This document shows positions 1,602 to 27,814 of a stretch of DNA of 32,000 bases, piece by piece. How positions within the stretch are numbered: position 1 is the first letter of the stretch; each line of letters begins with the position of its first letter. The notes under the pieces are model-generated. The model saw only the letters and a list, made by a program, of their open reading frames with translations. It made no database searches and was not told the origin of the DNA. The stretch covers positions 870,001 through 902,000 of the forward strand of contig CP060262.1 of assembly GCA_022646745.1 (NCBI GenBank). Direction: 5' to 3'. A program made the translations under genes and the position numbers. Source of the DNA: Planctomycetales bacterium (GTDB lineage: Bacteria; 4484-113; JAFGCY01).

Positions 1602-1617
1602 TCCTAAGCCGCCGGAC

Positions 1618-2473: not shown

Positions 2474-2487
2474 AGGAGAGGGACATC

Positions 2488-6451: not shown

Positions 6452-8005
6452 TCAGAACTGGCTGCCGAAGGCCAGGCCCCAGGAGTTGTCACTGCCGTCC
6501 CAGGCCTGCCCGATCCAGCCACCGACCTTGAAGCCGCCGTAGATCGGCAGCTTGAACAGCCCGCCGACGCCCCAGGAGTTGAGCGATTCCATGTCATCCA
6601 GGGTCTCGCCGATGAAGCCGTTGTCACTGAACACATAGGCCTCGTAGTTGCGAGATTTGTCCAGCGTGCAGCGGTACTCCGCGCGGGCCCCGACGAACTT
6701 GGTGGCCGCATAGGTGTCGTAGGTGTAGCCGCGCACATTGCCGGCCCCGCCCGCGATCAGCTCGCTGGCCCAGGGCACCTTGCCATCGGCGAGGTCGGCC
6801 TGCAGCTGCACGGACAGGCTGGCGGTGTCGAAGAAATCGCGGATGTCATTCTCCACGCCGATGCCCGGCTCCAGCTCGGTGCGCACCTGCGGCCCGGCGA
6901 TGTTGTGCACCGGGATGTAGCGCCGCAGGTCGAGCCGGAAGCGCTGTGAGTCGAAGTTGCCGAAGGTCTTGGATGCGCGCGCGCTGTAGCTCCAGCCCTT
7001 CTTCGGCAGGAAGGTGGAGTCGCGCTCGCCGCTGCTCCAGGTGATGTAGGTCTCCACGCCGTTGCCCGTCGGGGAGAAGTCCCCGCGCGGGGCCACGCCG
7101 CTGCCGTTCGGGTTGCCGGCGTAGACCCAGGCCTCGTGCCGGAAGATGCCGGCGCCGACGCCCCAGCTGCCCGGCAGCCGGCCGAGCGGGGCCTCGCCAT
7201 TGAAGCCGTAGGCGTAGTCCACCCGCGAGACCCGGGTGCGGATCTCCGCCACCTCGCCGATGGTGTCACGCTTGCGCGTGCGCCATGTATTGGCAACGCT
7301 TGCGCTGTAGCTCTCGGAATTGCGCCCGCTGTTCAGTGTGTTGTCAGTGAAGGAGAAGCTGCCGTAGGGGTCGTCCGCCTCCTTGGTGGCGACGCCGATG
7401 CTGGCGGACAGCTGCTTGTTGCTGTTGTCGAAGAAGAAGTCGTTGTAGCGCACCCCGACCAGCCCGCCGGCCAGCGAGGTGTAGCTCGGCTCCGGCACCC
7501 AGTTCTGCGGGTTCTGCGAGGTGTAGCGGATGTCGATGTTGACACTGCCGTCCTTGTTCTCCCAGACCTGCCAGCTCAGTGAGGAGAAGATCTGGCGGCT
7601 GTAAGCCTGCTTGGCCAGCCTCAGGAAGCGCTCCTCAATGTAGGGCGCGCCCTGCGGCACCTGCAGGATCAGCACGGCGAGCTCCGGGTCCAGCGTGCCG
7701 GTATGCTCCACCACCCGCACGTCCGCGATGAAGTGCATCCGGCCCTCATCGTAGGCATCGGCGTATTCGCGCAGGTCCTCCGCCGTGAGGTAGGCCAGCG
7801 CCTGGGGGTCGATCAGCTGGAAGATGAACTGCGGCAGGACATCGAGCACATCATCGGGGATTTCCTCGTAGGTGATGGCAGCTGCCGGGCGCGCGCAGGC
7901 CAGCATGCAGACAAGCACGAGCAATGCCCTGACGGCTATCTCACCAGCCCTGATTGGCTCCTCCTCCTCGGACAGCGATTCTAGCACGCAGGCCAGACCA
8001 CACAT
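6452..8005 (-). CDS. Omp85/BamA-family outer-membrane beta-barrel protein (surface antigen D15-like)
   Basis: The hydrophobic N-terminus is ...VRALLVLVCMLACARPAAA. An alpha/beta N-terminal (POTRA-like) region is followed by alternating beta-strand sequence. The motif GGAGNVRGY and the aromatic C-terminus ...GLAFGSQF are typical of Omp85 barrels. The exact start is uncertain. Confidence 0.7.
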   Translation of the reverse strand: MCGLACVLESLSEEEEPIRAGEIAVRALLVLVCMLACARPAAAITYEEIPDDVLDVLPQFIFQLIDPQALAYLTAEDLREYADAYDEGRMHFIADVRVVEHTGTLDPELAVLILQVPQGAPYIEERFLRLAKQAYSRQIFSSLSWQVWENKDGSVNIDIRYTSQNPQNWVPEPSYTSLAGGLVGVRYNDFFFDNSNKQLSASIGVATKEADDPYGSFSFTDNTLNSGRNSESYSASVANTWRTRKRDTIGEVAEIRTRVSRVDYAYGFNGEAPLGRLPGSWGVGAGIFRHEAWVYAGNPNGSGVAPRGDFSPTGNGVETYITWSSGERDSTFLPKKGWSYSARASKTFGNFDSQRFRLDLRRYIPVHNIAGPQVRTELEPGIGVENDIRDFFDTASLSVQLQADLADGKVPWASELIAGGAGNVRGYTYDTYAATKFVGARAEYRCTLDKSRNYEAYVFSDNGFIGETLDDMESLNSWGVGGLFKLPIYGGFKVGGWIGQAWDGSDNSWGLAFGSQF

Positions 8006-8168: not shown

Positions 8169-9215
8169 TTGAAGCGCCTCAACACTTTTGCGATTTCCAT
8201 CCTGATCATCATCCTTGCCGCGCTGGCGGCTTCCTGCGGTGGCAGCACCATCGGTGTCGGCCAGCCGGAGGGCATCAACGACGATACACAGGGCAATGGC
8301 GCCATCGAGCAGCAAATCCCCGAGGAGTTCAATGCTGACGAGCTCCCAATGCTGCCCTTCGACGGCGGTGACGAGGAGCAGCAGATCGTGCTGCAGGCCA
8401 AGGGCGCGAGCTGGGTTTCCAGCCCGGACCACCTCACTCCGGTGCTGCACCACAACGCCGGCGTGGACCCCGGTGACCCGAACTGCTACCTGCTGAAGGG
8501 CCGCAAGCCGGTCTTCACCCACGTGCCGCAGGGCCCGGACTTCGCCTACGCGCTCTACCAGATCCCGGTCGGCGCGCTTGAGACTGACCTGCTGAGCATG
8601 AAGGTCGAGGCCGCCCCCGGTGCCGCCGGTGACTTCTACTTCGGCGCGATCGCCAACTACAGCGGCATGGTCTGGGACTTCTTCGGACCGGAAGGCGCCG
8701 CCCCGACGTGGAGCGTTGACATGCAGAGCCTGGGCTATGACTTCACCAGCCCGGCCGGCAACCTCTACGTGCTGCTGCTGGTGCCTGCGGCCCAGAGCCT
8801 GCACGTGACCGACATCGTGCTGGACTACAAGGACCGCGACAAGCCGGTCGACCCGAACCCGGAGATCTGGAACGTCTGGGGCAAGGCCTATGAGGACTAC
8901 GCCACCGGCAGCGCGCATGGCGGGATGGACGTGATCTTCCGCGACATCAACACCAGCGCCTGGTACGTCACGATGGCTGACGCCGCCGGCAACTGGGGCA
9001 TGAACCTGCCGACCGGTGAGTACGACTTCTGGGTGATCGGCAACGAGATGCTGCTCGACGTGAGCGGCCCGGTGGCCCTGATCGACTACCTGCCCGACGG
9101 TGTCGGCACCCGCCTCGACCTCGACGGCAGCGGCCAGATCGTCTACCAGGGCAGCAACGCGGTCTACAACGGCAGCGTGGTGCCGATGCCGCTGATCACC
9201 GCCAACAGCTTCTAG
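8169..9215 (+). CDS. Lipoprotein with the shared N-terminal module and a C-terminal carboxypeptidase-regulatory-like (prealbumin-fold-like) domain
   Basis: The TTG start at 8169 follows AAGGAG (8156-8161). The lipobox is ILAALAASCGG. The shared module runs FAYALYQ...FYFGAIANYSGMVWDFF...GNLYVLLLV. The C-terminal pattern MADAAGNWGMNLPTGEYDFWV is present. Confidence 0.8.
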   Translation: MKRLNTFAISILIIILAALAASCGGSTIGVGQPEGINDDTQGNGAIEQQIPEEFNADELPMLPFDGGDEEQQIVLQAKGASWVSSPDHLTPVLHHNAGVDPGDPNCYLLKGRKPVFTHVPQGPDFAYALYQIPVGALETDLLSMKVEAAPGAAGDFYFGAIANYSGMVWDFFGPEGAAPTWSVDMQSLGYDFTSPAGNLYVLLLVPAAQSLHVTDIVLDYKDRDKPVDPNPEIWNVWGKAYEDYATGSAHGGMDVIFRDINTSAWYVTMADAAGNWGMNLPTGEYDFWVIGNEMLLDVSGPVALIDYLPDGVGTRLDLDGSGQIVYQGSNAVYNGSVVPMPLITANSF

Positions 9216-9226
9216 GAATTGGCAGC

Positions 9227-9255
9227 ACGGAACTACGGAGAAACGGAACAGAGGA
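9227..9255 (+). repeat. (ACGGA N3)x3 plus one degenerate copy, exact 8-nt period, just after a stop codon
   Basis: ACGGA occurs at 9227, 9235 and 9243, with GAGGA at 9251. The array starts 12 nt after the TAG stop at 9213-9215. Confidence 0.7.
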
Positions 9256-9264
9256 GAAATGATG

Positions 9265-9297
9265 AGGCCCCGGGAGATCCCGGGGCCTTCTGCTTTT
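9265..9297 (+). terminator. Rho-independent terminator for the 8169-9215 gene
   Basis: The 10-bp GC-rich stem is AGGCCCCGGG (9265-9274) / CCCGGGGCCT (9279-9288) with loop AGAT, followed by TCTGCTTTT. Confidence 0.7.
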
Positions 9298-9308
9298 CAT
9301 TGCAGGCA

Positions 9309-9345
9309 AGAGAAAAAGGGGAGGCCCGCTGTATCAGGCCTCCCC
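9309..9345 (-). terminator. Rho-independent terminator for the minus-strand 9438-11156 gene
   Basis: On the minus strand the stem GGGGAGGCC (9337-9345) / GGCCTCCCC (9318-9326) has a 10-nt loop and is followed by TTTTTCTCT (complement of 9309-9317). A further 10-bp hairpin at 9363-9391 has no T-tract. Confidence 0.6.
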
Positions 9346-9437
9346 GCTGTAGTGCGTACTGCGGAGCCCGGGCTGAAGGGTCCCGGGCTCCCGGTGGGCT
9401 TGGCCCGGGGTATGCTCCCCGGAGCCGTCATGCACAG

Positions 9438-11156
9438 CTACATGCCCGGCGGCGGGGGTCCGTGGACGAACACCACCAGCGCGAGCAGGCTGTTGTCATC
9501 TGTGATAACCGCATCGACAGTCACATGGCTGCCGATCTCGACGTCATCCCATGATCCGGGACCTTCCGGCAGCAGCCAGGCGGTCTGCGGATCGTGCTTG
9601 AAGGTCCAGGCGTCATCGGTGTTGAAGCCATGCACCTCGAAGCTGTTCTCGTTGGCACTGACGAACTGGCCGTCGACGGTGATGTACTCACCGCCACCGC
9701 CGCCACCACCGCCGCCGCCGTTGTCACCGAAGTCCATCACGACATCGGCGATCATCGCGCCATCCGGGGTGATCTGGCCGTCAACATGCACGAAGTCGCC
9801 GATGGCAACATCCTGCCAGCCACCCTCCATGCCGTCAGGCAGCAGGAACAGGGTGTGGCCGTCATGGCCGACCGTGAACGGTGCGCCGGCGGGACCCTGG
9901 GAGACGCTGATGGTCTCGGGGCCGATCGCGGTCACTTCGCCATCCAGCACGAAGGTCTGGCCACCGCCACCTCCGCCGCCGCCACCGCCGCCGTTGCCAC
10001 CGTTCTCGATGACAACGAAGCGGGCAAGCCACTGGCCGTCGGGGGTGATGTCACCTTCGGCATGCACGCAGTCGCCGGGCATGATGTCGCTCCACACAGC
10101 CGGACTGCCGTCAGCGTTGACGAACAGTGTGGCCTCATCGTGGAAGATCATCGGCGGGGCGAACCCGGCGGTGCCGTCGACCGTGAAGAACTCCGGCGTG
10201 ATGTCGATCACGGGGCCGTCGATGGTGAACATCTCACCGCCGCCGCCGTTGCCATCGACCATCTGCACGCTGAGCGCGATGCAGCCGCCGCCGATCACCG
10301 GGTCGTCCGCCATGTAGCCATCGACCGCGGCGAACATGCCGGGTGCGAAGGCATCCGGGCCGACCTCGTTGCCAGCCATGTCGAACCACAGGGTATCCGC
10401 ATTGTGGATGAAGTAGTGGCCGGCCACGCTGATGCTGAGGTCGTCAATGTGGTCAATCGGGCCGATCGCGAAGCAGGGGTCACCCGGGCCGCCGCCCGGT
10501 CCGCCGCCGTTGCGCTCACCGGTGGTGATCGTGGCCTGGTCGACGTAGAGGCTCTTGCCGCCATCAACCAGCACGACCCAGTACAGGTTGCCAAGCTGGC
10601 TGATGAACTGGCTCTCGCCCTCACTGAACTCGACGTTCACCTCCGGCAGCTGGGTCTCGATCACCCAGTGCCAGCGGTTGTCATCGAAGCTGCCGAGCGC
10701 CACGTAGTAGGTGGTGTCGAGGTCCTGCGGGCGGGTCTCCAGCGCGAAGCTGAGCACCTTCTGCCCCTGCAGCCCGTCCGCCTTGTACAGCGACCAGGCT
10801 GCTTCCTCAGCACTGCTCTCGAGCAGCAGGCTCGTACCATCGACGGTGCCGCCGGAAGCGACGAGGAAGTCGCTGCCGTTGTAGGTCTTCACCGCTGATG
10901 TACTGCGACTGCCGCTGTCAGCGACTGTCCCGCTGTCCTGCGGCACGCTGGGAAGCGGAGTCCCCAGTGGCAGCAGTTCGCCCCCGGAAGTTCCGGTGGA
11001 CTGGCCCGTGGAATTGATGCTATCGAGGGAAGACCCCGCATCCGCCGACAGTCCCGCTCCGCCTCCGCAAGACGCCAGCAGCATTGCCAGCACAAGCGGG
11101 AAGACGAAGATGGCCAGCCGGTGAAGCGACCCCTTCTCCCCTTGGTGATTCTTCAT
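9438..11156 (-). CDS. Lipoprotein: shared N-terminal module plus four DUF5666-like modules separated by poly-Gly linkers
   Basis: ATG 11156 has a strong GGAGGTG RBS. The lipobox is LAMLLASCGGG. The shared module runs AAWSLYKADGL...YYVALGSFDDNRWHW...GNLYWVVLV. Four repeats of the pattern x-[FI]-x-[VI]-DG-x-[VI]...G-D/S-x-V-x-V-[DE] are separated by Gly runs of 4, 10 and 11 residues. Confidence 0.85.
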   Translation of the reverse strand: MKNHQGEKGSLHRLAIFVFPLVLAMLLASCGGGAGLSADAGSSLDSINSTGQSTGTSGGELLPLGTPLPSVPQDSGTVADSGSRSTSAVKTYNGSDFLVASGGTVDGTSLLLESSAEEAAWSLYKADGLQGQKVLSFALETRPQDLDTTYYVALGSFDDNRWHWVIETQLPEVNVEFSEGESQFISQLGNLYWVVLVDGGKSLYVDQATITTGERNGGGPGGGPGDPCFAIGPIDHIDDLSISVAGHYFIHNADTLWFDMAGNEVGPDAFAPGMFAAVDGYMADDPVIGGGCIALSVQMVDGNGGGGEMFTIDGPVIDITPEFFTVDGTAGFAPPMIFHDEATLFVNADGSPAVWSDIMPGDCVHAEGDITPDGQWLARFVVIENGGNGGGGGGGGGGGQTFVLDGEVTAIGPETISVSQGPAGAPFTVGHDGHTLFLLPDGMEGGWQDVAIGDFVHVDGQITPDGAMIADVVMDFGDNGGGGGGGGGGEYITVDGQFVSANENSFEVHGFNTDDAWTFKHDPQTAWLLPEGPGSWDDVEIGSHVTVDAVITDDNSLLALVVFVHGPPPPGM

Positions 11157-11343
11157 AAGCTCACCTCCTGATTGGATAATCAGATTCTATGCATCCCAGC
11201 CGGGAAAGAAAGGGTCGGAAGCGACCCAATATTGCTGGGACAGTTCAGTCGACATGTTTTCAGCAAGTGTTTATCCGGATTGGAGAAACACTGTATTACC
11301 TATTTAATTCTACAACCGAAAGCCCTGTCCGGCCACCGCAAGC

Positions 11344-11389
11344 GTCCCAGTCACTTTCCACCTTGACTGTCCCAGTAACTTTGGGACAG
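11344..11389. promoter_or_regulatory. Candidate operator: direct repeat GTCCCAGT(C/A)ACTTT x2 overlapping the inverted repeat CTGTCCCA-N7-TGGGACAG
   Basis: GTCCCAGTCACTTT is at 11344-11357 and GTCCCAGTAACTTT at 11369-11382. The inverted-repeat arms are at 11367-11374 and 11382-11389. A further TGGGACAGT lies at 11236-11244. All sit in the divergent intergenic region 29-75 nt upstream of the MocR-like regulator start. No binding data exist. Confidence 0.35.
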
Positions 11390-11417
11390 TACTGGTAGAC
11401 TGTAAACACCGGATGAA

Positions 11418-12950
11418 ATGAACCTGACCATAGACAAGCAGGGCAGTGAACCCGTCTACGAGCAGATCCGCCGCCAGATCGAGGAACTGGTCGGCGAGGG
11501 CCTGCTCACGGCGGGCACGCGCATTCCTTCCGTACGCCAGCTGGCGGCCTCGCTTGGCCTATCCAAGAATACCGTCAGTGTGGCTTATGAGGAACTGGCG
11601 GCCCGGCATATCATCGAAACCAAACCCGGCAGCGGCACCTTCATCTGTGCGCGGCCGGAAGTGGCCACCGGAGTCAACCTCGGCCGGCGCAACGAGATGA
11701 ATGGCGAGCTGTCGGACTTCCCGCCGATGCGCTGGGAGCCCTACTTCTTCCGCAGCGAGTTCTTCGGCATGCTGCCCGGCAAGCGCGTGAGTGAGATGAT
11801 CCGCTTCACGCACAACTACCCGGACCCGGAGCTGTTCCCCTTCGAGCGCATCAAGCAGGTCGCCACCAACATGCTGTGGAACCCGCAGAGCTTCTTCTTC
11901 GACATCTCGCACCCGCAGGGCTACCAGCCGCTGGTGGAGCACCTCGAGAAGGAAATGGCGCTGGCCGGGATCCCGATGGCTGAGGGCCAGAACGACATCA
12001 TCATCACCGGCGGCTTCCAGCGCGCGCTCTCGCTGATCCTGGACTTCATCGTGCGCCCAGGCCAGAAGGTGGCGATCGAGAGCCCGAGCTACTCCAACCT
12101 GCTCAACCTGCTGATCGCCAAGCACATCGACTACCTGCCTGTGCCGGTTGACAGCGAGGGGATGGACACCGAGTTCCTGGCAACGGCGATGGCACGCGGG
12201 GAGGTCTGCGCGGTGATCTGCACGCCGGACTTCCACAACCCGACCGGGATCTGCATGAGCCGCGAGCGCCGCGAGCACCTGCTGCGCCTGGCGATGCAGC
12301 ACCGGGTGCCGATCCTTGAGGATGACCAGGGTCGCAAGCTGCGCTTCGAAGGCGAGGACAATCCACCGCTGAAGTCGATGGACTACGGCGGATACGTGAT
12401 CCATGCCAGCAGCTATGGAATGTGCTTCCTGCCAGGCCTGCCGATCGCCTGGGTGACGACGCCGGCCGCGATATCGGCACCATTGCTTGACGCCAAGCTG
12501 GCTGCTGACCGCGGCGACAGCTACTTCCTGCATGTGCTGATGCACAACTTCATCGTCAAGGGACATTTTGACAGGCACATCCGCAAGTCCCAGCGTGAGT
12601 ACAAGCGCCGCCGGGATGCCATGGTGGAGACATTGTCAAAGTACCTTCCAAGCGAGTGCCGCTACCGTGTACCGCAGGGCGGCTTCACGATCTGGCTTGA
12701 GCTGCCCCAGCCGATGAATTCGATGAAAGTACTGGAACACAGCCGGCGGGCCGGGGTTGACTTCGTGCCGGCCCCGATAGTGATGCCTGACCGTAAGGAC
12801 TGCAATTGCCTGCGCCTGAGTTATTCGCGCAATGGTGTCGAGGATATTCGCTCGGGAATCCGCACGCTATGTGATGTGATCCGTAGCTGCGTCGACAATC
12901 CGGACCTGATGGAGGGTCCGGAAATGAAATATGAGGATCTGCTGAAATGA
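11418..12950 (+). CDS. MocR-subfamily GntR transcriptional regulator (wHTH fused to a fold-type-I aminotransferase-like domain) with degenerate PLP-site residues
   Basis: The N-terminal GntR wHTH is YEQIRRQIEELV...IPSVRQLAASLGLSKNTVSVAYEELAARHIIETKPGSGTFI. The C-terminal aminotransferase-like motifs are VAIESPSYSN, TPDFHNPTG, ILEDDQ and SSYGMCFLPGLPIAW. The last motif aligns without gaps to the usual FSKxLxPGLRxGY. Confidence 0.9.
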   Translation: MNLTIDKQGSEPVYEQIRRQIEELVGEGLLTAGTRIPSVRQLAASLGLSKNTVSVAYEELAARHIIETKPGSGTFICARPEVATGVNLGRRNEMNGELSDFPPMRWEPYFFRSEFFGMLPGKRVSEMIRFTHNYPDPELFPFERIKQVATNMLWNPQSFFFDISHPQGYQPLVEHLEKEMALAGIPMAEGQNDIIITGGFQRALSLILDFIVRPGQKVAIESPSYSNLLNLLIAKHIDYLPVPVDSEGMDTEFLATAMARGEVCAVICTPDFHNPTGICMSRERREHLLRLAMQHRVPILEDDQGRKLRFEGEDNPPLKSMDYGGYVIHASSYGMCFLPGLPIAWVTTPAAISAPLLDAKLAADRGDSYFLHVLMHNFIVKGHFDRHIRKSQREYKRRRDAMVETLSKYLPSECRYRVPQGGFTIWLELPQPMNSMKVLEHSRRAGVDFVPAPIVMPDRKDCNCLRLSYSRNGVEDIRSGIRTLCDVIRSCVDNPDLMEGPEMKYEDLLK

Positions 12951-15079
12951 GACACACAGCCATCTACACGATTCTGGCAACGGCATTTCTGCTCAGTGCC
13001 TGTGGGGGCGGACAGGGCAGCGGTGAGTCCACTGGCAGCTATGCACTGGAGGCCCTGCATGGCACCAGCAGCGCCAGCCTGCAGCTCGGGATGGAGCGGG
13101 GCAGTGCCGTGGTCAGCGTGGACTCACCTGGCAGCGATGGCAGTTTCTTCAGCCTCAGCCTGCCGGAGAACATGGTTCCCGCCTCGCTGGACTGGCTGGA
13201 TGGCAACGGCAACCCGCTGGACAGCGGGATGCTGACATTCACCCATTTTGAGGATGGCCGGCTCAGTGCAGCTGTGATGCCGCTGGCCGATGCAGCTTCC
13301 GGGCCAGTCAGCCTGCGAGTTCAACCTGCACTCGACGCAGCGGCCCGCCTGGCCAGTGCCACTGATGAGGAAATCCGCGAGGAGCCAGTGCCCTTCACCT
13401 TCATGGACTTTGACCCGGCTGGCGGCTCAGTGCTGCTCAGCTGGCCGGCCTGGCTGCCCGGTGACTACGACCTGAGCGGCATTGTCGGCATCAATGACAT
13501 CACCCCGCTGGGCAAGCACTTCGGCTCCGCCAGTGGCGGCAATGGCTGGACCCAGGACGACCCGCTGCACTGGATCGATGGCAACCGCGACGGGGAGATC
13601 AACTCCGTTGACTTGAGCGTGATCGGCCAGCACTTCAACGATGAACTGATCGGTTTCCGCGTCTACCATGACGGCGAACTGTACCAGGGCATGGACGAAA
13701 GCATGCTGAACGTACTGAGCGGTGACCCGCAGGGCCCTGGCCTGCCCCGCCGCCACTTCCTGCACCTGCCGGGCATTGAGTCACCCGACCTGCTTGAGCT
13801 GCGCAGCGTCTACCACCATCACGGGCTCGGCTCAGGTGGCAACAACCCTGACCTCGAGGTGCATATCTCGATTGACGGCGTGGAGCTGGCTGACAACGAA
13901 TTCGGCAACAAGACCGGTACCCGCGTGATCAAGCCGATTGAGGATGTCAACGGCGCACGTGACATCATCAGCACGCCGGAGAGCGAAAGCAGCTCGCTGG
14001 CCCGCTTCCGCAGCGTGCCGCGCGGGCAGGAGTACCTGCTGGACATCGTCTACGAACCGCTGGTGAGTCCCTTCGGCAGCGAGCTGCCTGACAACCCGGT
14101 GGTGCAGGGTGGCGACGATGCCGGCAAGGTGGTCACCTCCGTGTCCTTCCGCCTGCCGCAGCAGTACAGCCGCAGCGTGATGAACATCAACATCCACTAC
14201 CTGCCGCAGCCCGATGGCAGTTACTTCGCCGAGCTGAATGCCAGCATTGACCACGGCAGTGGCGTGAGCGAGTACTCCGCGCTGCTGGACTACAACGGCG
14301 GCGTGCTGCGCCGTGACAGTGACAACGACGGCAGCTTCACGGGTGAGGTCGAATTCGAGGACAGCGACCGCGACTGCGTCAGCAACCAGCTGGTGGAGGA
14401 GATCTTCTTCCCCGGCGTCGAGCCGCCGCAGCAGGGCTACATCCATGGCGTGTTCGACGGCCTCGTGGAGTCGATCGACTTCATTGCCTCCGAGATCACG
14501 ATGGTGCCGGGCAGCATGCAGTTCTGGAGCGACGGCGCAATCCGCGAGGACCGTACCGTGCACTTCAGCGAGAATGCCGAGTTCATCGGATTCGCGGACA
14601 TCCGTTCGCTGGCTCCGGGAGATCCGGTGCACATTGAGATGTACCGCCTGGAGGACAATGGAGACACGGGCAATATCCCCGCCGGCGTATCCTGGGCGGA
14701 GCTGATCCATGCACTGGACCAGAACTTCAGTGAGTACTGGATCCAGGCCGAGCTGCAGGAGAACAGCGAGTTCGTCGCGATCAGCGTCGGCCGGGCTGGT
14801 GGACCGCTGGACGGAGCCTACCCGCAGTACCTGATCGCGGTGCGCGATGAGTTCAGCGGGGATTACGAGGAGCTGCCCTACGGCGAAGTCGTAACCGGAT
14901 TCATCTACCTGCCGCTCTGGCCTGACCACCTCTATACGATCAGCCTGCTTGGGGTGGCACTTGACGGCAAGCGCGTGCTGCTGGCGGATACCCAGGTCTA
15001 CATTGACCCGGAGCTGTTCTGGGACGGCTTCGGTGACCCGCCGGGCGGCAATCCGCCGATCGGCGGACCGGGAGTCTGA
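12947..15079 (+). CDS. Lipoprotein with dockerin-like repeats and a DUF5666-like segment, hypothetical
   Basis: ATG 12947 overlaps the regulator stop (ATGA). The lipobox is TAFLLSACGGG. The dockerin-like pair is GDYDLSGIVGINDITPLGKHFG ... DGNRDGEINSVDLSVIGQHFN. A later segment (IHGVFDGLVESIDFIASEITMVPG...LAPGDPVHIEMYRLEDNGD) resembles the DUF5666-like modules elsewhere in the window. Confidence 0.85.
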   Translation: MRHTAIYTILATAFLLSACGGGQGSGESTGSYALEALHGTSSASLQLGMERGSAVVSVDSPGSDGSFFSLSLPENMVPASLDWLDGNGNPLDSGMLTFTHFEDGRLSAAVMPLADAASGPVSLRVQPALDAAARLASATDEEIREEPVPFTFMDFDPAGGSVLLSWPAWLPGDYDLSGIVGINDITPLGKHFGSASGGNGWTQDDPLHWIDGNRDGEINSVDLSVIGQHFNDELIGFRVYHDGELYQGMDESMLNVLSGDPQGPGLPRRHFLHLPGIESPDLLELRSVYHHHGLGSGGNNPDLEVHISIDGVELADNEFGNKTGTRVIKPIEDVNGARDIISTPESESSSLARFRSVPRGQEYLLDIVYEPLVSPFGSELPDNPVVQGGDDAGKVVTSVSFRLPQQYSRSVMNINIHYLPQPDGSYFAELNASIDHGSGVSEYSALLDYNGGVLRRDSDNDGSFTGEVEFEDSDRDCVSNQLVEEIFFPGVEPPQQGYIHGVFDGLVESIDFIASEITMVPGSMQFWSDGAIREDRTVHFSENAEFIGFADIRSLAPGDPVHIEMYRLEDNGDTGNIPAGVSWAELIHALDQNFSEYWIQAELQENSEFVAISVGRAGGPLDGAYPQYLIAVRDEFSGDYEELPYGEVVTGFIYLPLWPDHLYTISLLGVALDGKRVLLADTQVYIDPELFWDGFGDPPGGNPPIGGPGV

Positions 15080-15130
15080 GGCCTGCCCCGCTGAAACAAT
15101 CCCCCGGCCTGAGGGTTACACTAAGGTCCT

Positions 15131-16555
15131 ATGGCAAGTCTGAACAGCAAGCGCGGCAGTGCCGAGCGTTTCGAGGAGCTGACCCCGCAGCAGATCGTGG
15201 CCAGGCTCAGCGAGTACATCGTCGGGCAGGATGAAGCCAAGAAGGCCGTTGCGGTGGCGATCCGCAACCGCCTGCGCCGCCTGCAGGTCTCCGAGGAACT
15301 GCGCGACGAGATCATCCCGAAGAACCTGATCCTGATGGGGCCGACCGGCGTCGGCAAGACGGAGATCGCGCGGCGGATGGCGATCCTGCTGAAGGCGCCC
15401 TTCGTCAAGGTCGAGGCCACCAAGTTCACCGAGGTCGGCTACGTCGGCCGCGACGTGGACAGCATCATCCGTGAGCTGACCGAGAACAGCGTGCGCATGC
15501 TGCGCCAGGAACGCATCGACGAAATCAGCGACACAATCGCCGGCAAGGTGGTGGAACGGCTGGTGGACTACCTGCAGCCCCTGCCCGGCCGCCCGGCACC
15601 GGCTTCCGGTGACGACCCGGAGGAGGCCGCGCGCCGCCGGCAGAAGCATGAGGATGCGCTCGAACAGGTCAAGCGCCTGCGTGAGCGGCTGCGCCAGCGG
15701 ATCCGCTCCGGCGAGATGGACGACGAGAAGGTCACCATTGAGGCCAAGGAAGGTGGCAACAACATGATGCAGGTGTTCTCCGCCCAGGGGATGGAGGAGA
15801 TGGGGATGGACCTGCAGAACCTGTTCAGCAACATGACGGACAAGGGCAAGAAGAAGAAGCGCACCACCGTCGGCGAGGCGCGCCGCATCCTGATGCAGGA
15901 GGAAGCCGACCGTCTGATTGACAACGATGCGATTGTGCGCGAGGCGATCGAGCGCGTCGAGCTGGCCGGCATCGTGTTCATCGACGAGATTGACAAGATC
16001 GCGCACCGCGAGGGCGGCAGCTCCAGCGGGCCGGACGTCTCCCGCGAGGGCGTGCAGCGCGACATCCTGCCGCTGGTGGAGGGCACCACCGTGATCACCA
16101 AGTACGGCCCGGTGCGCACCCAGCACATCCTGTTCATCGCCGCCGGTGCATTCCATGTCAGCCGCGTGAGCGACCTGATCCCGGAGTTCCAGGGCCGCTT
16201 CCCGCTGCGCGTCGAGCTGGAGAGCCTGACGGAGGAGGACTTCGGCCGCATCCTGCGCGAGCCGAAGAACAGCCTGATCCGCCAGTACAGCCAGCTGCTG
16301 GCAACGGACGGCGTGGAGCTGCAGTTCACCGGCGGCGCGATCACGCGCATGGCGGCGATTGCCAGCAAGGCGAATGCGGAGAGCCAGAACATCGGCGCGC
16401 GCCGGCTGCACACGGTGATGGAGAAGCTGCTGGAGGACATCGCGTTTGAGGCGCCCTATGAAGAGCCGAGGAAGATCCGGATTGACAAGGCCTTCATCGA
16501 GGACAAGCTCGGCAGCCTGCTGAAGGAAAAGGACGTCGCGCAATACATATTGTGA
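15131..16555 (+). CDS. hslU: ATP-dependent protease ATPase subunit HslU
   Basis: The full-length match to the HslU pattern includes LTPQQIVARLSEYIVGQDEAKKAVAVAIRNR, Walker A GPTGVGKTEIARR, KVEATKFTEVGYVGRDVDSIIRELTE, Walker B IVFIDEIDKI, DVSREGVQRDILPLVEGT, FIAAGAF and LIPEFQGRFP. Confidence 0.95.
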   Translation: MASLNSKRGSAERFEELTPQQIVARLSEYIVGQDEAKKAVAVAIRNRLRRLQVSEELRDEIIPKNLILMGPTGVGKTEIARRMAILLKAPFVKVEATKFTEVGYVGRDVDSIIRELTENSVRMLRQERIDEISDTIAGKVVERLVDYLQPLPGRPAPASGDDPEEAARRRQKHEDALEQVKRLRERLRQRIRSGEMDDEKVTIEAKEGGNNMMQVFSAQGMEEMGMDLQNLFSNMTDKGKKKKRTTVGEARRILMQEEADRLIDNDAIVREAIERVELAGIVFIDEIDKIAHREGGSSSGPDVSREGVQRDILPLVEGTTVITKYGPVRTQHILFIAAGAFHVSRVSDLIPEFQGRFPLRVELESLTEEDFGRILREPKNSLIRQYSQLLATDGVELQFTGGAITRMAAIASKANAESQNIGARRLHTVMEKLLEDIAFEAPYEEPRKIRIDKAFIEDKLGSLLKEKDVAQYIL

Positions 16556-16636
16556 TTGCCGTCTCGTGCGAGCACTCGACGGTCTAGCCCTGAGCTGGCG
16601 CATTCGCTGCCAGCGGGTCGCGTGGAAGTTACGGGA

Positions 16637-16658
16637 GGTGCTGCAAAGCTGCACCTTT
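16637..16658 (+). terminator. Weak candidate terminator downstream of hslU
   Basis: The stem GGTGCTGC / GCTGCACC has 7 of 8 pairs with loop AAA and is followed only by TTT. It lies about 80 nt after the hslU stop. Confidence 0.3.
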
Positions 16659-16729
16659 GGAGGCAGTGTGCAAGTTTATCCGCGAGGAAAAGACCTCAGG
16701 CAAGATACTATGTCTGTTAGACTTTGCCG

Positions 16730-17419
16730 ATGAACAAGCCAAGTGCAAAGTCCGGCATTGTCCCGAAAGCGTTGCTTTTGCTTTGCTGTTTGCTTGCAGG
16801 GTACTTGGCAGTAAAGAAGCCAGTTGCCGACGCTAAGGAACTAAACCGTCAGCGCGACAGGATTCAACTGATCAGGGGCAGTTCTTCCGAAGCGTATTCC
16901 AACACTGACACGGGAAACTGGCAACGGACCTTGCCACTGCAACAGCGGATTCCAGACTCACTGGAAAAGGACCAATTGCAAGACCTGCTGGCAGAACTGT
17001 TCAGGGAGTATGCCCAATCCGTTCCACCGGAAAGCGACCTATACGTTACCTGCAGCAGCACAACGGACATGTTGTATCTGGCAGATCCAGTGAGCATCCA
17101 GGATCCTGACCCAGGCTTACTTGTCAACCTTGGTAATGATGGAAGAAGAGTCAATACCGGAAAGGACTGGCTGGAAAAGCGTGACGAGAACCGAGCTCCG
17201 GCATTCCACCCGCATGTCCTGCATTTCGTCGGATTGGCAGAATCAGAAAAAGGGGAGTACGATTTGCTGATTGAGCTGTCCAGAGGTGAGATCATGGGTT
17301 CATTCCTGAATTCAGCATCACTGGATCAGACAGGGGAATGGGTCATCAGTTGGGATACTCCGGTAGAGGACATGCTGGCAATCATCGATAAAGCTTACGC
17401 TCATTCAATGCAGGAATAG
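16730..17419 (+). CDS. Membrane-anchored hypothetical protein in a low-GC islet
   Basis: ATG 16730 is used here; the track start at 16724 is TTG. The N-terminal anchor is KALLLLCCLLAGYLAV. No recognisable motifs were found. Two sampled 60-nt stretches (16801-16920) are 50-53% GC, against 65% in an hslU sample. Confidence 0.55.
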   Translation: MNKPSAKSGIVPKALLLLCCLLAGYLAVKKPVADAKELNRQRDRIQLIRGSSSEAYSNTDTGNWQRTLPLQQRIPDSLEKDQLQDLLAELFREYAQSVPPESDLYVTCSSTTDMLYLADPVSIQDPDPGLLVNLGNDGRRVNTGKDWLEKRDENRAPAFHPHVLHFVGLAESEKGEYDLLIELSRGEIMGSFLNSASLDQTGEWVISWDTPVEDMLAIIDKAYAHSMQE

Positions 17420-17521
17420 CAAGCTGATTGAATCAAGCCGCTGATGCTGCAATCAACAAGTATCAGCGTCGCCCAGTGACGACAGGAAGTGCATGTTCCG
17501 CAGGCGCATTGAATAAGGCTG

Positions 17522-17578
17522 GAAGTAGGGTGGCGGTAATACCGCCACCGGGATGGGGTGTTACCCCATCCCTACTTC
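17522..17578. repeat. REP/BIME-like double-hairpin element, copy A (57 nt)
   Basis: The sequence is GAAGTAGGG-TGGCGGTAATACCGCCACC-GGGATGGGGTGTTACCCCATCCC-TACTTC. The outer inverted repeat is GAAGTAGGG/CCCTACTTC. Inner hairpins are GGTGGCGG/CCGCCACC and GGGATGGGGT/ACCCCATCCC. Each strand reads GTAGGG followed by a palindrome. It is near-identical to 31103-31160. Confidence 0.75.
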
Positions 17579-17777
17579 AATCCCTGCATCCCTTTCGTCA
17601 TTGTGCGACAGTCCCGCCTTGCGGGATCGCACCTCCCATCCCTCCTTCTGGTGTTTCTCATTCTGATTCTGATCCCTCTTCTCCCCTCTTCCAACTGTAA
17701 GCCTAAAAACCACCGTAACTGTACGGCTGGGAGCATACAGCCAGAGGAATAATGTCTGGTCTGCGGAGGAACCGGAC

Positions 17778-19460
17778 ATGCGACACATATTGCCAATCCT
17801 GATACTGCTGCTTTCAATCGCCTGCTCCTGCGGCGGCCAGCAGGCTGCCCCGGCCGGGCAGGACTTGCCGCCGGCTGTCACCGCAGCGCAATCACAGCAC
17901 GGCCTGCCCGCCCTCGACACCCTGCGCGAATCCAGCCTGGCCTTCAGCCTGGAGCAGGATGGCAACATGGCCACGGCGCAGTCGCCGACCGCGATCGTGG
18001 ATGGCAGCGAGCTTCTGCTGCCCAGCGGCTCCAACTTCGCCAGCTGGGGGATCTGGAGCTTCGACTCGGGCTATGACTACCCGACGATGCTGAACGCGGT
18101 TGTCAATGTGCCCGATGGCGACGAGTTCTGGCTGGCTGTGTCCGATTACGAGGACGGCCGCTGGCAGTTCAGCGGACCCTACGGCAGTGGCGTGGCAATC
18201 GAGCTGAGCAGTGCCAACAGGTCCCCGAAGCACAATCTGCATGTCGCCGTGCTGGCGATGGAAGGCAGCGCGGTCAGCGTGCAGAAGCTTGTACTGGCCA
18301 CTGACAACGGCTGGAAGGTGATGGATCTCGGGATCCCCATCAGTTCGACCGCCCTGGAACTCATCAGTGCCTGCATGATCGGAGGCCGCCCGGCCGTTGC
18401 CTACGTCTCTGAGGATGGCGCGCTCAGCTACCTGCGCGCCTCCGATCCGCTGGCGCATGACTTGAATGCCTGGCAGGATGAGCCGGTCGGCCTGATCGGT
18501 GGCGTTGGTTCATTCAGCGACATCAGCCTGTGCAGCATTGATGGCAAGCCGGCGGTTGCCCTGATCAGGGGAACTGACCAATGGAACATCTATTATGCCT
18601 GTTCTAGCACCGAGGAAGCTGCCCCTGCAGACTGGCAGATAAATCCGAACCCACTTGCCAGCGGCAGCAACTACTCGCCCAACTTCAGCATGGCGGACGT
18701 CGGTGGCCATCCGGCGATTGCCTATGTCGACACGAATGAGGAGCTGGCCTACATCCGTGCCTCAACAGGCAACGGCTCCACGGCCTCGGACTGGAGCACA
18801 CCGCTGATCCTTGAGGTCAATGACGAACCGAATGAGCACGTGAATCGCCCGCAGCTGATGATGGACCGGGGCAAGCCGCTGGTCAGCTACATCGGGCACT
18901 CCAGCGAGGTCTTCCTGCGCTACAGCGATTCCGCTACTGGAGCAAAACTGTCCAACTGGCTGCCGCGCAGCACCGTCGGCCTGTGGAATGACGGTGACTG
19001 GGAGGACAAGGCAATGTTCATGCATGAGGGTAACCTTGTGTTCATGCTGTACGCCGATGACAGCAACAACAGCAGCAGCTTTGAGCCGGACTTCATTCAT
19101 TACTACTTCCGGGACACCTATGAAAAACAGACCGGCTGGGAGGGAAAGCATGAGGTGGCTGAAATCGATGGCGGCTCATTCCACGCATCCCTGTCCGGTG
19201 CCAGCATCAACGGCATGCCGGCGGCCTGCTACCGCAGCAACTACTCGCCGGAGCTGACATATTCCTTCTCCGATCCGGACCATCCTGCCTACACCTCCGT
19301 CTGGGAACACCAGATAGTCAACGACGGCTTCCAGAACGGCATGCTGCTTGATACTGAGCTGATGGAGAATGCCGAAGGCCAGCCCTGCATCCTGTACTGC
19401 GCGTATGACTTCCAGCTGGATAGCAAGAGGCTGTACTTCGCCGTGCGCCGCGAACCCTGA
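17778..19460 (+). CDS. Lipoprotein: shared N-terminal module plus a roughly 7-bladed propeller-like G-x-P-A-[VI]-x-Y repeat domain
   Basis: ATG 17778 has a GGAGGAA RBS. The lipobox is LLLSIACSCGG. The shared module runs ASWGIWSF...FWLAVSDYEDGRWQF...HNLHVAVLA. Seven repeats are GGRPAVAYVSEDGALSYLRAS, DGKPAVALIRG, GGHPAIAYVDTNEELAYIRAS, RGKPLVSYIGHSSEVFLRYS, EGNLVFMLY, NGMPAACYRS and EGQPCILYCAY. Confidence 0.85.
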   Translation: MRHILPILILLLSIACSCGGQQAAPAGQDLPPAVTAAQSQHGLPALDTLRESSLAFSLEQDGNMATAQSPTAIVDGSELLLPSGSNFASWGIWSFDSGYDYPTMLNAVVNVPDGDEFWLAVSDYEDGRWQFSGPYGSGVAIELSSANRSPKHNLHVAVLAMEGSAVSVQKLVLATDNGWKVMDLGIPISSTALELISACMIGGRPAVAYVSEDGALSYLRASDPLAHDLNAWQDEPVGLIGGVGSFSDISLCSIDGKPAVALIRGTDQWNIYYACSSTEEAAPADWQINPNPLASGSNYSPNFSMADVGGHPAIAYVDTNEELAYIRASTGNGSTASDWSTPLILEVNDEPNEHVNRPQLMMDRGKPLVSYIGHSSEVFLRYSDSATGAKLSNWLPRSTVGLWNDGDWEDKAMFMHEGNLVFMLYADDSNNSSSFEPDFIHYYFRDTYEKQTGWEGKHEVAEIDGGSFHASLSGASINGMPAACYRSNYSPELTYSFSDPDHPAYTSVWEHQIVNDGFQNGMLLDTELMENAEGQPCILYCAYDFQLDSKRLYFAVRREP

Positions 19461-19742
19461 CCAGGCTGAATCCCACTTGCCTAATAGGATTGTTGCCCTG
19501 CTGCGACTTTGTCTCATTTAGGATCGAGCGTTCCATTTTGAACTGATTCACCGCGCACTGCGGTACTGTCCCTGCTGGCTGCGAGCAGGCCCAGACTGGG
19601 TCCAACTCATTGCCGGGCCGTGTGGGGGCTGGATTCGCTATTGCTTCCGGTCTCAGTGTCCCCGTCGTTTTACCGGGAAAATGGCCCTTTTGGATGCCTA
19701 TTGTCCGGGATATCCTGTGAGCATCAAACCGGAGGTGCAGCA

Positions 19743-21581
19743 ATGCATACCACTATCAGGAAATGGAACGGAATCCTTGCGGCGGCGGTGGCCCTGGCCA
19801 TGCTCGCCCTCGCTTCCTGCGGGGCCGGGAACGGTTTGGCCCTCTCAGAATTGAACAATGACGGCTCGCCGAGCCAGCTGGCGGACGACAGCCGCGGGCT
19901 GCCGGGCCTGCCGCAGGATGACAGCCCGCTCGGACGCAGTGCTTCCGCAGTGGAAACCTTCGCCGGCGACACGGCGATCGACTTCGTGAACGGCCTGCCG
20001 GGTGAAGGCGTGATGGTGCTCTCCAGCACCGAGACCGATAGCGCCTGGGCGCTCTACCAGATCGGTGGCTTAAGCGGCCGCAAGGTGGAGAACCTCAGCA
20101 TTTCCGCCCTGATCAACGGCGGAGACGAATTCTCCGTCGGCCTGAGCAACTTCAGCGACGGCGTGTGGGACTTCCTGATCAGCAGCACCGGCGGCGTGTT
20201 CAACCACGACCTGACCGCGGAGCAGAGCCGCCTGGCCAGCAAGGCCGGCAACCTGTTCGTGGTGGTCGTCGTTGACAATGCCGCCCAGCTCAACATCATC
20301 GAACTCAGCGTGGACAGCCGCCCGCTCGAGGAGGGTGAGGAGCTGCGTCCGGGCAAGGGCCGCCGCATCAGCGTGAGCGAGGGCCTGCCGGACAAGATCG
20401 TGGTCCAGTGGGAGAGCGTGGACGGCGCGGACAGCCATGAGCTGTGGCGCGAGGCGGATGTGGACGGCGAGGATGAGAACGCCGTGCTGATCGCCACCGT
20501 CCCGGTCGTGCCTGAGCAGATCAACTACAGCTATGAGGACACTGACATCCTGCTCGACACCGAATACAAGTATGCGGTGCGTGCGATCAACTCCACCGGC
20601 CCCGGCAACTTCAGCCAGTGGGAAAGCGGCTGGGCCGGCACCACCGCCCCCGAGGGTGGCGAGAATGAGATCGAGAACGAGGTCAAGGGCATCATCGACG
20701 AGATCGCTGAAGGCAGCATCACCGTGGATGGCAACGTGTTCGTCACCGATGAGTCCACCATCTGGCTTGGTGACAACGACAAGCTGCTGACTGCCGCTGA
20801 CTTCGCGGCCGGCATGACCGTCGAGGTCAATGGCGAACGTTTCGGCAGCGACCAGTGGATCGCCCGCACTGTCGAACTTGACCTGGAAGGCAATGAAGGC
20901 AACGAGATCAAGGTCACCGGCCTGATCGAGGCGATCGACCTTGCAAGCATCACCGTCGGCGGCATCACCGCCGTGATCAGCGAGACCACGAGCTGGCTGG
21001 ATGCCAATGGCGACCCGGCCCTGCCCGCGGACTTCCTCGTCGGCATGAATGTCGAGCTGAGCTACCTTGACGACGGACAGGGCGGCATCAGCGCCGTGAC
21101 GGTCAAGGTCGAGAACGAGGCCGAGACCAACGGTGGAGAGCTGCGGGTGCGTGGCACGATCGACGCCATCGAGGCCGGCAGCATCAGCGTGGACGGCGTG
21201 CTGGTGATGGTGGACGGCACCACGACCTGGGAAGACCTGAATGGTGACCCGGCGCTGCCCGGCGACTTCAGCGTGGACATGGACGTGCAGATGGAAGCCG
21301 TGGCTGACGGACAGGGCGGCTGGATTGCCAGCATCGTCGGCATGGAGGACTGGGGTGTTGAGCCCCACGAGTTCAACGTGAGCGGCGCGATCACCGCAAT
21401 CGACGAGAACACGGTCAGCGTTGAGGGCTTCAGCTTCAACATCACCGTCGACACCATCTGGATGGACATGGCTGGCGACCCCGCAGTGCAGGGCGACTTC
21501 AGCGTGGACATGCAGGTTGACCTCGGCGGCGAGGAGGACGGCATCGGTGGCTGGAATGCCCTCGATGTGCAGATGGTCTGA
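19743..21581 (+). CDS. Lipoprotein: shared N-terminal module, an Fn3-like domain and four DUF5666-like modules
   Basis: ATG 19743 follows GGAGG (19731-19735); the track extension from 19620 is rejected. The lipobox is LAMLALASCGAG. The shared module runs SAWALYQIGGL...FSVGLSNFSDGVWDF...GNLFVVVVV. The Fn3-like stretch runs IVVQWESVDGADSHELWR...YKYAVRAINSTGPG. Four repeats begin V[KTRS]G-x-I-[DT]-x-I. Confidence 0.85.
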   Translation: MHTTIRKWNGILAAAVALAMLALASCGAGNGLALSELNNDGSPSQLADDSRGLPGLPQDDSPLGRSASAVETFAGDTAIDFVNGLPGEGVMVLSSTETDSAWALYQIGGLSGRKVENLSISALINGGDEFSVGLSNFSDGVWDFLISSTGGVFNHDLTAEQSRLASKAGNLFVVVVVDNAAQLNIIELSVDSRPLEEGEELRPGKGRRISVSEGLPDKIVVQWESVDGADSHELWREADVDGEDENAVLIATVPVVPEQINYSYEDTDILLDTEYKYAVRAINSTGPGNFSQWESGWAGTTAPEGGENEIENEVKGIIDEIAEGSITVDGNVFVTDESTIWLGDNDKLLTAADFAAGMTVEVNGERFGSDQWIARTVELDLEGNEGNEIKVTGLIEAIDLASITVGGITAVISETTSWLDANGDPALPADFLVGMNVELSYLDDGQGGISAVTVKVENEAETNGGELRVRGTIDAIEAGSISVDGVLVMVDGTTTWEDLNGDPALPGDFSVDMDVQMEAVADGQGGWIASIVGMEDWGVEPHEFNVSGAITAIDENTVSVEGFSFNITVDTIWMDMAGDPAVQGDFSVDMQVDLGGEEDGIGGWNALDVQMV

Positions 21582-21664: not shown

Positions 21665-21803
21665 CTCAGCGGGCAGGTAACTGATTCATTCCTTTTAAGC
21701 TAAACTTCACCATTCGATTTCGTATAAGTTGCTGGAACGAGAGGCACCCAGGCCATGAGGGAGCAAGTGCGCATCGCAGCCCCAGCGGTTGGTGAGGTGC
21801 CTG

Positions 21804-24800: not shown

Positions 24801-24860
24801 AGCCATTTCGACCAGGCCACGGGCGAGCTGCGGATCTCCACCCGGCCGACCTCGCTGTGA
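21804..24860 (+). CDS. Large lipoprotein: dockerin-like repeats, an Fn3-like domain, four PKD-like domains and a roughly 7-bladed propeller-like domain
   Basis: ATG 21804 lies 7 nt after GGTGAGG. The lipobox-like signal is LALVLAVPSCGG. The dockerin-like pair is GDYDQNREVNIADLSPLG / DGDSNGELNIADLSPIG. Four repeats show the PKD-like pattern (V.FDASGS.DPDG.I..Y.WDFDGDG...T.V.D). C-terminal blades include DDRPAAFF, AGNPGVVS, DGNPAVFH, NGFPMVAF and GDRPLMVF. Confidence 0.9.
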   Translation: MTMSGLLARPDSAVPGLFLPLLALVLAVPSCGGQASRPEQPAGANQNPAAFMSTQLTELENLPMPDGMDAARWEELKSAMRSQLAGVKAVLAAPATPASAAKLALDELTLTLSWGYACQGDYDQNREVNIADLSPLGSGFGTTTNGLGPFPPGSVESMVDGDSNGELNIADLSPIGSNFGRRVEKYNIYRSLSIDDLPASNGGPVGSGAELLGSLPHNQATGIPSQGQLQFSFQLENAAPGWFYFVRPADGNSEGTPSNVASFGAKPDNLAPLASFTAEPQSGDAPLVVSFDASGSSDLDGVNGDISDIVQFLWDFDGDGIVDESSTAPTTQHTYLQPGQFNVTLTVFDSGAGQASLSIADPLPNEPPTAVLTADQPIGNVPLSVVFDPTASSDTDGSIIVTEMDFDGDGNFDDFSTDPAESYTHLYETAGNFSATLRVTDDRGAQATAVVLVQLSAQGNLPPLPQFSFQPDSGEVPLEVEFDASASTDPDGTIVSYDWDFNNDGLVDDSSPDPVLQHVFTDAGTFIVRLTVTDDGGLSTSSIFTDPLEVSDPGNLAPLAVLSVEVTQAGFPTIVSLDPSASSDPDGTISQYEYDFDGDGDFEISVNDDSVQQYPFYRTGSFSPVLRVTDNDGASATDSDISVQPTEGWATVLVDTVPNPSDTSLAFVTSGINGLTRRFVVCYTDSVDGALRSSNAPAFLPTGWTTPVLAAPASGDAVSLIEVDDRPAAFFTLPGGSGVGGVGYVRALDGKGTGWGEPLAAATFGAAGADRLSAVVTAGNPGVVSCHGSSLLIRFIAATDATGTAFAAPVDVFSGGSSAQVPGMRALVVDGNPAVFHLNAPVFGDMEYRAATTASGSSWPTEPRTVLQDVKTGTQGYIGAATKLSNGFPMVAFQDLGDASTKVVLAIATVIDGSSWLIIEDPVDLPFLDGALLSDFSLELLGDRPLMVFRMRNQGNSALAFAIADDASALSWGDTEILDGTGRPGQSCSLVHNGTHFVVSHFDQATGELRISTRPTSL

Positions 24861-24999
24861 GTCACTGGCCCCTGCAGGATGGACCTCAGGGATGATATAA
24901 ATGTATTGCTGTAATTTCGGATTATGGCCGGTCCGAAACACCACGCAAGCTCCACCGAGCCCAGGTTGCTAATCGAACACCGGCAAAGTGGAAGGACTG

Positions 25000-27798: not shown

Positions 27799-27814
27799 GC
27801 AGCGGACGCCGCGT

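Follow-up and report, generated by a model that had tools for sequence, protein, structure and literature searches.

We show here that four predicted lipoproteins encoded in a 32,000-nucleotide stretch of a Planctomycetales bacterium genome (GenBank assembly GCA_022646745.1, contig CP060262.1, positions 870,001 to 902,000 of the forward strand; this whole stretch is called the window, and positions are counted from its first letter) share an N-terminal head domain, referred to below as the module. The module is a so far unannotated, family-defining domain of bacterial lipoproteins, and the four window genes are paralogous members of this family. It thus constitutes a new sequence family of a known fold class, subject to an unusually strict architectural rule, in an uncultured phylum. 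We are highly confident of what this domain is with regard to family, architecture, and fold. The genes and their parts are listed below; signal peptides, lipoboxes, and motifs were read from the sequence, module limits are family hidden Markov model (HMM) envelopes, and tails were searched with Pfam.

8169-9215, plus strand: gene of lipoprotein 1 (348 amino acids [aa])
8169-8237, plus strand: lipoprotein 1 signal peptide and lipobox, Cys codon 8235-8237
8316-8861, plus strand: lipoprotein 1 module
8343-8357, plus strand: lipoprotein 1 LPMLP motif
8862-9212, plus strand: lipoprotein 1 short tail, without Pfam match
9438-11156, minus strand: gene of lipoprotein 2 (572 aa)
11067-11156, minus strand: lipoprotein 2 signal peptide and lipobox
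10491-10985, minus strand: lipoprotein 2 module
10941-10955, minus strand: lipoprotein 2 LPSVP motif
9441-10490, minus strand: lipoprotein 2 tail, four DUF5666 repeats with poly-Gly linkers between them
17778-19460, plus strand: gene of lipoprotein 3 (560 aa)
17778-17825, plus strand: lipoprotein 3 signal peptide and lipobox
17874-18329, plus strand: lipoprotein 3 module
17904-17918, plus strand: lipoprotein 3 degenerate motif LPALD
18330-19457, plus strand: lipoprotein 3 tail, about seven propeller-like repeats of about 55 aa (G-x-P-A-[VI]-x-Y), without Pfam match
19743-21581, plus strand: gene of lipoprotein 4 (612 aa from the ATG at 19743)
19743-19820, plus strand: lipoprotein 4 signal peptide and lipobox
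19869-20354, plus strand: lipoprotein 4 module, the copy used for structure prediction
19899-19913, plus strand: lipoprotein 4 LPGLP motif
20355-21578, plus strand: lipoprotein 4 tail, a weak Fn3 match and four DUF5666 repeats

The four open reading frames (ORFs) are present as a preliminary description of this DNA had claimed, and their translations agree. Each protein starts with a signal peptide ending in a lipobox (LAASC-GGS, LLASC-GGG, SIAC-SCGG, and ALASC-GAG), the hallmark of predicted Lgt and LspA substrates. That one homologous module heads all four, as proposed in the same description, is upheld by pairwise BLASTP comparison of the N-terminal parts, which gave expectation values (E) from 3e-17 (19743 versus 9438) to 0.03 (17778 versus 19743). 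Moreover, an HMM built from the four copies matched only these four ORFs in the six-frame translation of the window (E of 5e-59 to 5e-44). The module is longer than the approximately 95 aa assigned to it initially: the N-terminal parts can be aligned over about 135 columns, and HMM envelopes span about 135 to 160 aa. Likewise, the residue patterns given for it hold only approximately, with A-Y-A-L-Y instead of A-W in 8169 and GNLYW in 9438. A conserved lead-in, G-[LI]-P-x-[LIV]-P-x-[DE] followed by R-x-[AS]-S, had been missed. Throughout the family, the lipobox Cys is followed by a low-complexity, disordered tether of 20 to 100 residues, then by the lead-in and the module proper. Over 154 aligned sequences, the Trp of G-x-W-x-[FW] is nearly invariant (153 sequences), the LP motif retains its Pro in 86%, and S-x-x-G-N-[LM]-Y-F keeps its G in 90% and its N in 79%.

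The database search with a four-copy HMM that had been suggested as a check revealed a large family. In an exhaustive search of 1.84 billion cluster representatives, the profile built from the window copies matched 774 proteins at E<=1e-3, each representing a cluster at 50% identity, 145 at E<=1e-10, and 6 at E<=1e-30, with a best E of 4e-43, and the matches cover the profile almost end to end. The family came into view only by this exhaustive profile search; word-indexed homology searches with 4- and 47-sequence alignments returned almost nothing, namely, a fragment orthologue and one ENA protein. In the best 151 members, on which our statistics of position and architecture are based, the module occupies median residues 55 to 191 of proteins with a median length of 546 aa. 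It begins past residue 150 in only three of them, and one protein carries two copies. Of the 120 homologues with a recognizable signal peptide, 112 have a lipobox, the Cys being mostly followed by G-G.

No model of Pfam-A (2025 copy) or NCBIfam 20.0 covers the module in the four window proteins or the head domain in 91 full-length homologues, and 47 isolated modules gave no Pfam match even at E<=10. PDB sequence and profile searches with the module produced no relevant match, and ten members whose source names we inspected are called "hypothetical protein" or bear the name of their tail domain only.

The fold of the module could be modeled with high confidence. AlphaFold2 (AF2) prediction from the four sequences alone reached a predicted local distance difference test score (pLDDT) of 60 and was left out of the fold search. 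With the 47-sequence alignment, the 19743 module gave an all-beta model of about 11 strands (pLDDT 91.6, predicted template modeling score 0.87). Foldseek comparison of this model with the PDB yielded 41 matches at E<=1e-3 among the 50 best, with template modeling (TM) scores of 0.5 to 0.62 at 8 to 17% identity. They comprise domain III of Cry4Ba, Cry1Ac, Cry5B, and Cry11 (E from 3.5e-5), carbohydrate-binding modules (CBMs) of families CBM6 (2cdp, 2cdo), CBM35 (2w1w, 2w46, 2vzp), CBM36, and CBM61, and further BT0996-C, a PNGase C-terminal domain, Eph receptor ligand-binding domains, and phage tail and baseplate proteins. With high confidence, the predicted fold is a galactose-binding-domain-like beta jelly-roll, as in CBM6/35/36/61 and Cry domain III. 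The matched Cry, CBM, PNGase C-terminal, and Eph domains are all binding modules. At the sequence level, the 47 modules do not belong to CBM6 or CBM35, as neither CBM_6 nor CBM_35 matched any of them at E<=10. The conserved A-W-A-L-Y, Y-x-V-G, W, and Y-F-V-V residues lie mostly in predicted strands, and the conserved N-[YF], G-P, and S-x-x-G-N residues in predicted loops.

The tails differ widely, and the notion of a common head on variable tails, put forward for the four window proteins, is strongly supported across the large family. Within the window, it needs a correction: the tails do not all differ, as those of 9438 and 19743 each contain four DUF5666 repeats. The label "carboxypeptidase-regulatory-like" proposed for the 8169 tail found no confirmation in Pfam. 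Neither did "propeller" for the 17778 tail, although its approximately seven copies of a 55-aa repeat fit a propeller. The same repeat forms the C-terminal part of two neighboring lipoproteins, 21789 and 24988 (BLASTP E of 1e-7 between the 24988 protein and the 17778 tail). Opposite the 9438-11156 gene lie two long plus-strand ORFs, 9259-10317 and 9594-10898, one of them poly-Pro-rich and mirroring the poly-Gly linkers between the DUF5666 repeats. These are very probably shadow ORFs of this gene, which has a 62 to 64% guanine-plus-cytosine content, and not genes. A search of public assemblies for the identical 9438 protein retrieved no record.

Pfam analysis of the 91 full-length members identified CarboxypepD_reg in 27, SdrD_B in 21, DUF5666 in 17, SpaA in 15, fn3 in 13, the non-catalytic beta-sandwich GH85_C in 10, and propellers in a few. 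Nearly all of these are non-catalytic beta-sandwich or propeller domains, and the 25 most frequent Pfam families of the 91 members include no glycoside hydrolase catalytic domain. No Pfam family occurs in all 91, which implies that no known model is hiding the head.

Considering these data together, we tentatively favor, with a confidence that stops somewhat short of calling it probable, the explanation of the head as a binding or anchoring module close to the membrane, probably glycan-binding, combined with interchangeable tails. Its mechanistic part is the less secure. A lipid anchor would hold a non-catalytic binding module near the membrane; the module would most likely recognize a glycan or another constant component of the envelope, and this recognition may fix and orient the variable tails (DUF5666/BOF repeats, Fn3, transthyretin-like repeats, and propellers), which would provide the function specific to each protein. 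The paralogue clusters would have arisen through domain shuffling and local gene duplication. We consider glycan or envelope binding most probable because binding is what this fold class does. A function in docking or assembly at the membrane, as suggested earlier, would agree with the position of the module close to the lipid anchor.

Several points weigh against this explanation. The case for ligand binding is drawn solely from the predicted fold class, and TM scores of 0.5 to 0.6 at 10 to 17% identity denote likeness of fold, with no bearing on shared ligand-binding residues. Well-studied surface glycan-binding lipoproteins usually carry their binding domain distally and not next to the membrane. 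Carbohydrate-active enzymes and transporters are not regular neighbors of module genes, judging by 76 neighbor genes at nine independent loci. Finally, the conserved gene cassette described below, which unites a module gene with the gene of a dockerin-like lipoprotein, speaks for a protein partner no less than for a glycan.

Alternatively, the module might be an inert structural base without a specific ligand, serving as a rigid spacer or folding nucleus to keep the tails at a distance from the membrane, comparable to the first domains of immunoglobulin (Ig)-like or BACON type in other lipoproteins. Its constant position beside the tether would suit such a role, as would the location of most of the conserved residues in predicted strands, i.e., in the core, and the lack of a conserved gene partner at most loci. 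However, conserved residues also occupy the predicted loops, and one jelly-roll with its LPxLPxD lead-in has been retained across 774 clusters while everything else varies. An inert base is also disfavored by the usual nature of spacer domains, which tend to be Ig- or Fn3-like and are often repeated or exchangeable. We regard this explanation as unlikely.

The preliminary description had speculated that the module is the partner of dockerin-like repeats in three neighboring lipoproteins. The features on which this idea bears are as follows:

11157-11417, no strand: intergenic region between the divergent genes of lipoprotein 2 and a MocR-like regulator, read from the sequence
11418-12950, plus strand: MocR-like regulator with a GntR helix-turn-helix and an aminotransferase-like domain (Pfam)
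12947-15079, plus strand: dockerin-like lipoprotein (710 aa) with a double Ca-loop segment at about 13403-13681 (sequence, Pfam, and PDB profile)
21789-24860, plus strand: dockerin-like lipoprotein with its segment at about 22104-22385, PKD repeats, and a propeller-like tail as in lipoprotein 3
24988-27798, plus strand: dockerin-like lipoprotein with its segment at about 25279-25557, PKD repeats, and a propeller-like tail
18330-19457, about 23900-24857, and about 26600-27795, plus strand: propeller-like repeat tails of 17778, 21789, and 24988, without Pfam match
Window 9438-15079, L007 4042-9677, L008 4056-9674, and L031 4485-9475: cassette of lipoprotein 2-type, MocR-like, and 12947-type genes in the window and in three related loci (L numbers)

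The three neighbors share a homologous segment of about 90 aa (BLASTP) with two D-x-[DN]-x-[DNS]-G-x-[VI]-x-x-x-D-L loops. Pfam Dockerin_1 matched only the 12947 protein, over profile positions 1 to 56 of 57, at E of 0.002 and 18.6 bits compared to a cut-off of 22.9, and a profile of the three segments retrieved mostly dockerins at the top of its PDB matches, with weak E of 0.017 to 0.8. On the strength of the two loops, this sub-cut-off match, and the weak profile matches, calling these proteins dockerin-like was fair. The statement that no cohesin is recognizable also stood, as Pfam detected none in the large proteins of the window. Pfam Cohesin (PF00963) matched neither the four lipoproteins at E<=0.1 nor the 47 modules at E<=10, and the likeness of the module itself to a cohesin failed the structural comparison, with no cohesin among the 50 best Foldseek matches in the PDB. 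In the 12947 protein, the dockerin-like segment is preceded by a beta-rich domain of about 110 aa (residues about 25 to 150, window 12947-13400), which is also present in the orthologues of loci L001 to L003, L007, L008, and L031. It had no Pfam match and only insignificant PDB matches (lamin tail, E about 0.6). The idea that this domain diverged from the module was rejected (hhalign probability 0.2%), and the Pfam and PDB results provide no support for a hidden cohesin.

The 12947 gene starts within the last 4 nucleotides of the MocR-like gene, which is divergent from the 9438-11156 gene. This cassette, in which a module-plus-DUF5666 lipoprotein gene diverges from a MocR-like gene followed by a 12947-type gene, is kept in the clade of the window, in L007/L008, and in L031. 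Between these three lineages, the MocR-like proteins are 59 to 62% identical and the dockerin-like proteins 26 to 32%, and the outer flanks differ, with HslU in the window, M14 peptidases in L031, and other genes in L007. Judged from gene order, conservation in three diverged lineages with differing flanks suggests that one module protein and one dockerin-like protein are functionally linked or at least co-regulated, physical contact being a separate matter. In the census of the 76 neighbor genes, the GntR/aminotransferase gene was the sole recurrent partner, the remainder being scattered housekeeping genes. The intergenic region 11157-11417 contains both exact copies of TGTCCCAG found in the window (11235-11242 on the minus strand and 11368-11375 on the plus strand), and near-copies of it build the inverted repeat CTGTCCCAGTAACTTTGGGACAG. 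These repeats represent a candidate MocR operator.

If the module were a dockerin receptor, the jelly-roll would act as a non-cohesin analogue that binds the Ca-dependent dockerin-like repeats of 12947, 21789, and 24988, giving rise to lipoprotein hetero-complexes on the membrane. We consider this rather improbable. It draws on the dockerin-like nature of the neighbors, with their duplicated loops, on the missing cohesin, and on the persistence of the MocR-linked cassette despite the sequence divergence. Module and dockerin-like segment moreover never share a polypeptide (0 of 151), their genes being adjacent, and the repeat tail found in 17778, 21789, and 24988 indicates that one tail type has been combined with either head, module or dockerin-like. 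Nevertheless, the module resembles CBM6/35 and Cry domain III in fold and lacks a cohesin signal in sequence as well as in structure. Since module proteins and dockerin-like proteins each have a lipid anchor of their own, docking would be unnecessary for attachment. A dockerin-like gene lies within 10 kb in only three of about nine independent long loci, and most metagenome family members, on mostly short contigs, have no dockerin-like neighbor. It would be a bolder and still less probable proposal that the jelly-roll is a cohesin-independent receptor for the orphan dockerin-like modules of this lineage, which builds envelope complexes, with the 9438-type and 12947-type pair as the ancestral couple. 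If the module did bind dockerins, it would be a second mode of dockerin recognition, structurally unrelated to the first, and would provide a first partner for the many non-cellulosomal dockerins without cohesins. What such dockerins bind in cohesin-less organisms is an old question, reportedly raised by Peer et al. in 2009 (FEMS Microbiol Lett).

Very improbable, finally, is a sorting or assembly tag, in which an envelope machine would recognize the LPxLPxD lead-in and jelly-roll, e.g., for surface exposure or insertion into an outer membrane complex, in loose analogy to the Bacteroidota lipoprotein export signal or the C-terminal domain of type IX secretion system substrates: a linear motif conserved at a fixed place after the lipid-modified Cys in otherwise unrelated proteins, the lineage-restricted expansion of the family, and an Omp85-like gene divergent to the 8169 gene would fit, but this neighbor is conserved in no related locus, genes for transport or secretion do not recur in the vicinity of family members, the lead-in has a pLDDT of 71 to 84 in the AF2 model, more like a part of the fold than a free signal, and known lipoprotein export signals are short peptides and not 150-aa domains. 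The Omp85-like gene (6452-8005, minus strand) encodes a 517-aa protein with a weak BamA match (TIGR03303, E of 0.0045) and no Pfam match, probably a diverged Omp85-type outer membrane protein judging by this similarity. As a conserved partner of the module it was rejected because none of 33 related loci encodes a homolog.

At 27815-29098 (minus strand), the window encodes an LbtU-family siderophore-porin-like protein (NCBIfam E of 2e-23, under the curated cut-off). Its presence and that of the Omp85-like gene point to a diderm envelope. Four tandem paralogous genes without Pfam match occupy 3-4089 (3-704, 701-1519, 1589-2428, and 2488-4089; BLASTP E down to 2e-18). An N-terminal hydrophobic leader is evident in three of their products, and the 2488-4089 protein contains an internal duplication joined by G-G-[EQ]-W-[AS]-G-G repeats.

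Genome scanning with a subfamily alignment (A4) located nine loci in seven metagenome-assembled genomes (MAGs) titled "UBP7", "bacterium", or "Planctomycetales bacterium", including UBP7 HKST-UBA01 (99% identical over the module query), UBP7 HKST-UBA03, Planctomycetales bacterium Ww346, and AC1.30. The HKST-UBA MAGs presumably stem from the saline activated-sludge study cited below. The three closest genome loci are 82 to 99% identical to the window over the module query, and the gene order of the window is conserved in L001 to L004. A metagenome scan with another subfamily alignment (A7) added 24 loci. Module paralogues cluster, with four in 13 kb in the window, two to three per UBP7 locus, and two in tandem in L019. 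A metagenome contig (L021/L022, 6859-15146) carries four module genes within 8 kb, a local expansion outside the clade of the window; two of them are short (about 275 to 290 aa) and stand in tandem on the minus strand. In Ww346 (L002), a beta-lactamase-family gene (11011-12219), 79% identical to window 29839-30948, is separated by about 1.3 kb from the upstream 19743 orthologue, whose ORF ends at 9695, and both dockerin/PKD lipoproteins and the porin region of window 21789-30948 are absent there. Three UBP7 MAGs were reported from a saline activated-sludge plant (PMC8495973). Our literature search on UBP7 returned survey mentions only and found nothing published on the biology of this lineage. 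The cell envelope of this uncultured lineage, the GTDB candidate phylum UBP7, appears to be characterized by the module family as a hallmark.

The module defines a sizeable domain family, with 774 clusters at 50% identity, that has no Pfam or NCBIfam model and no solved relative detectable by sequence. For annotators, it provides a handle on hundreds of "hypothetical" lipoproteins, and for experimenters a compact, confidently modeled domain. If the head does bind an envelope glycan, it would represent a new way of organizing lipoproteins at the membrane.

Among known systems, the best structural matches are the domains III of Bacillus thuringiensis Cry toxins (4moa, 1w99, 4arx, 7qx4; E of 3.5e-5 to 1e-3, query-normalized TM 0.52 to 0.59), which are receptor- and glycan-binding jelly-rolls. 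They differ in being C-terminal in three-domain pore-forming toxins, whereas the module shows no sequence similarity to them and is not accompanied by toxin domains I and II. CBM6/35/36/61 modules (2cdp, 2cdo, 2w1w, 7zvo, 2vzp, 7ay3; Foldseek probability 1.0, E of 7e-5 to 1e-3, target-normalized TM up to 0.62) are alike in predicted fold and size, and both are non-catalytic. However, no sequence relationship is detectable (10 to 17% identity), and, unlike CBMs, the module is not attached to a glycoside hydrolase, is obligately N-terminal after the lipobox, and has its own LPxLPxD lead-in. Cohesins of cellulosomal scaffoldins are likewise all-beta modules of about 140 to 150 aa in cell-anchored proteins, with genes beside those of proteins with dockerin-like repeats. 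In contrast to cohesins, the module occurs as one copy per protein and not in tandem arrays, and its putative ligands would be lipoproteins and not enzymes. Surface lipoproteins of Bacteroidota with BACON or Ig-like first domains, such as those of the SusE/F type, also combine lipobox, tether, a recurring N-terminal beta domain, variable domains, and paralogue expansion. Unlike the SusE/F-type proteins, the module is a jelly-roll and not Ig-like, belongs to another phylum, and is found apart from polysaccharide utilization loci and SusC/D-type neighbors.

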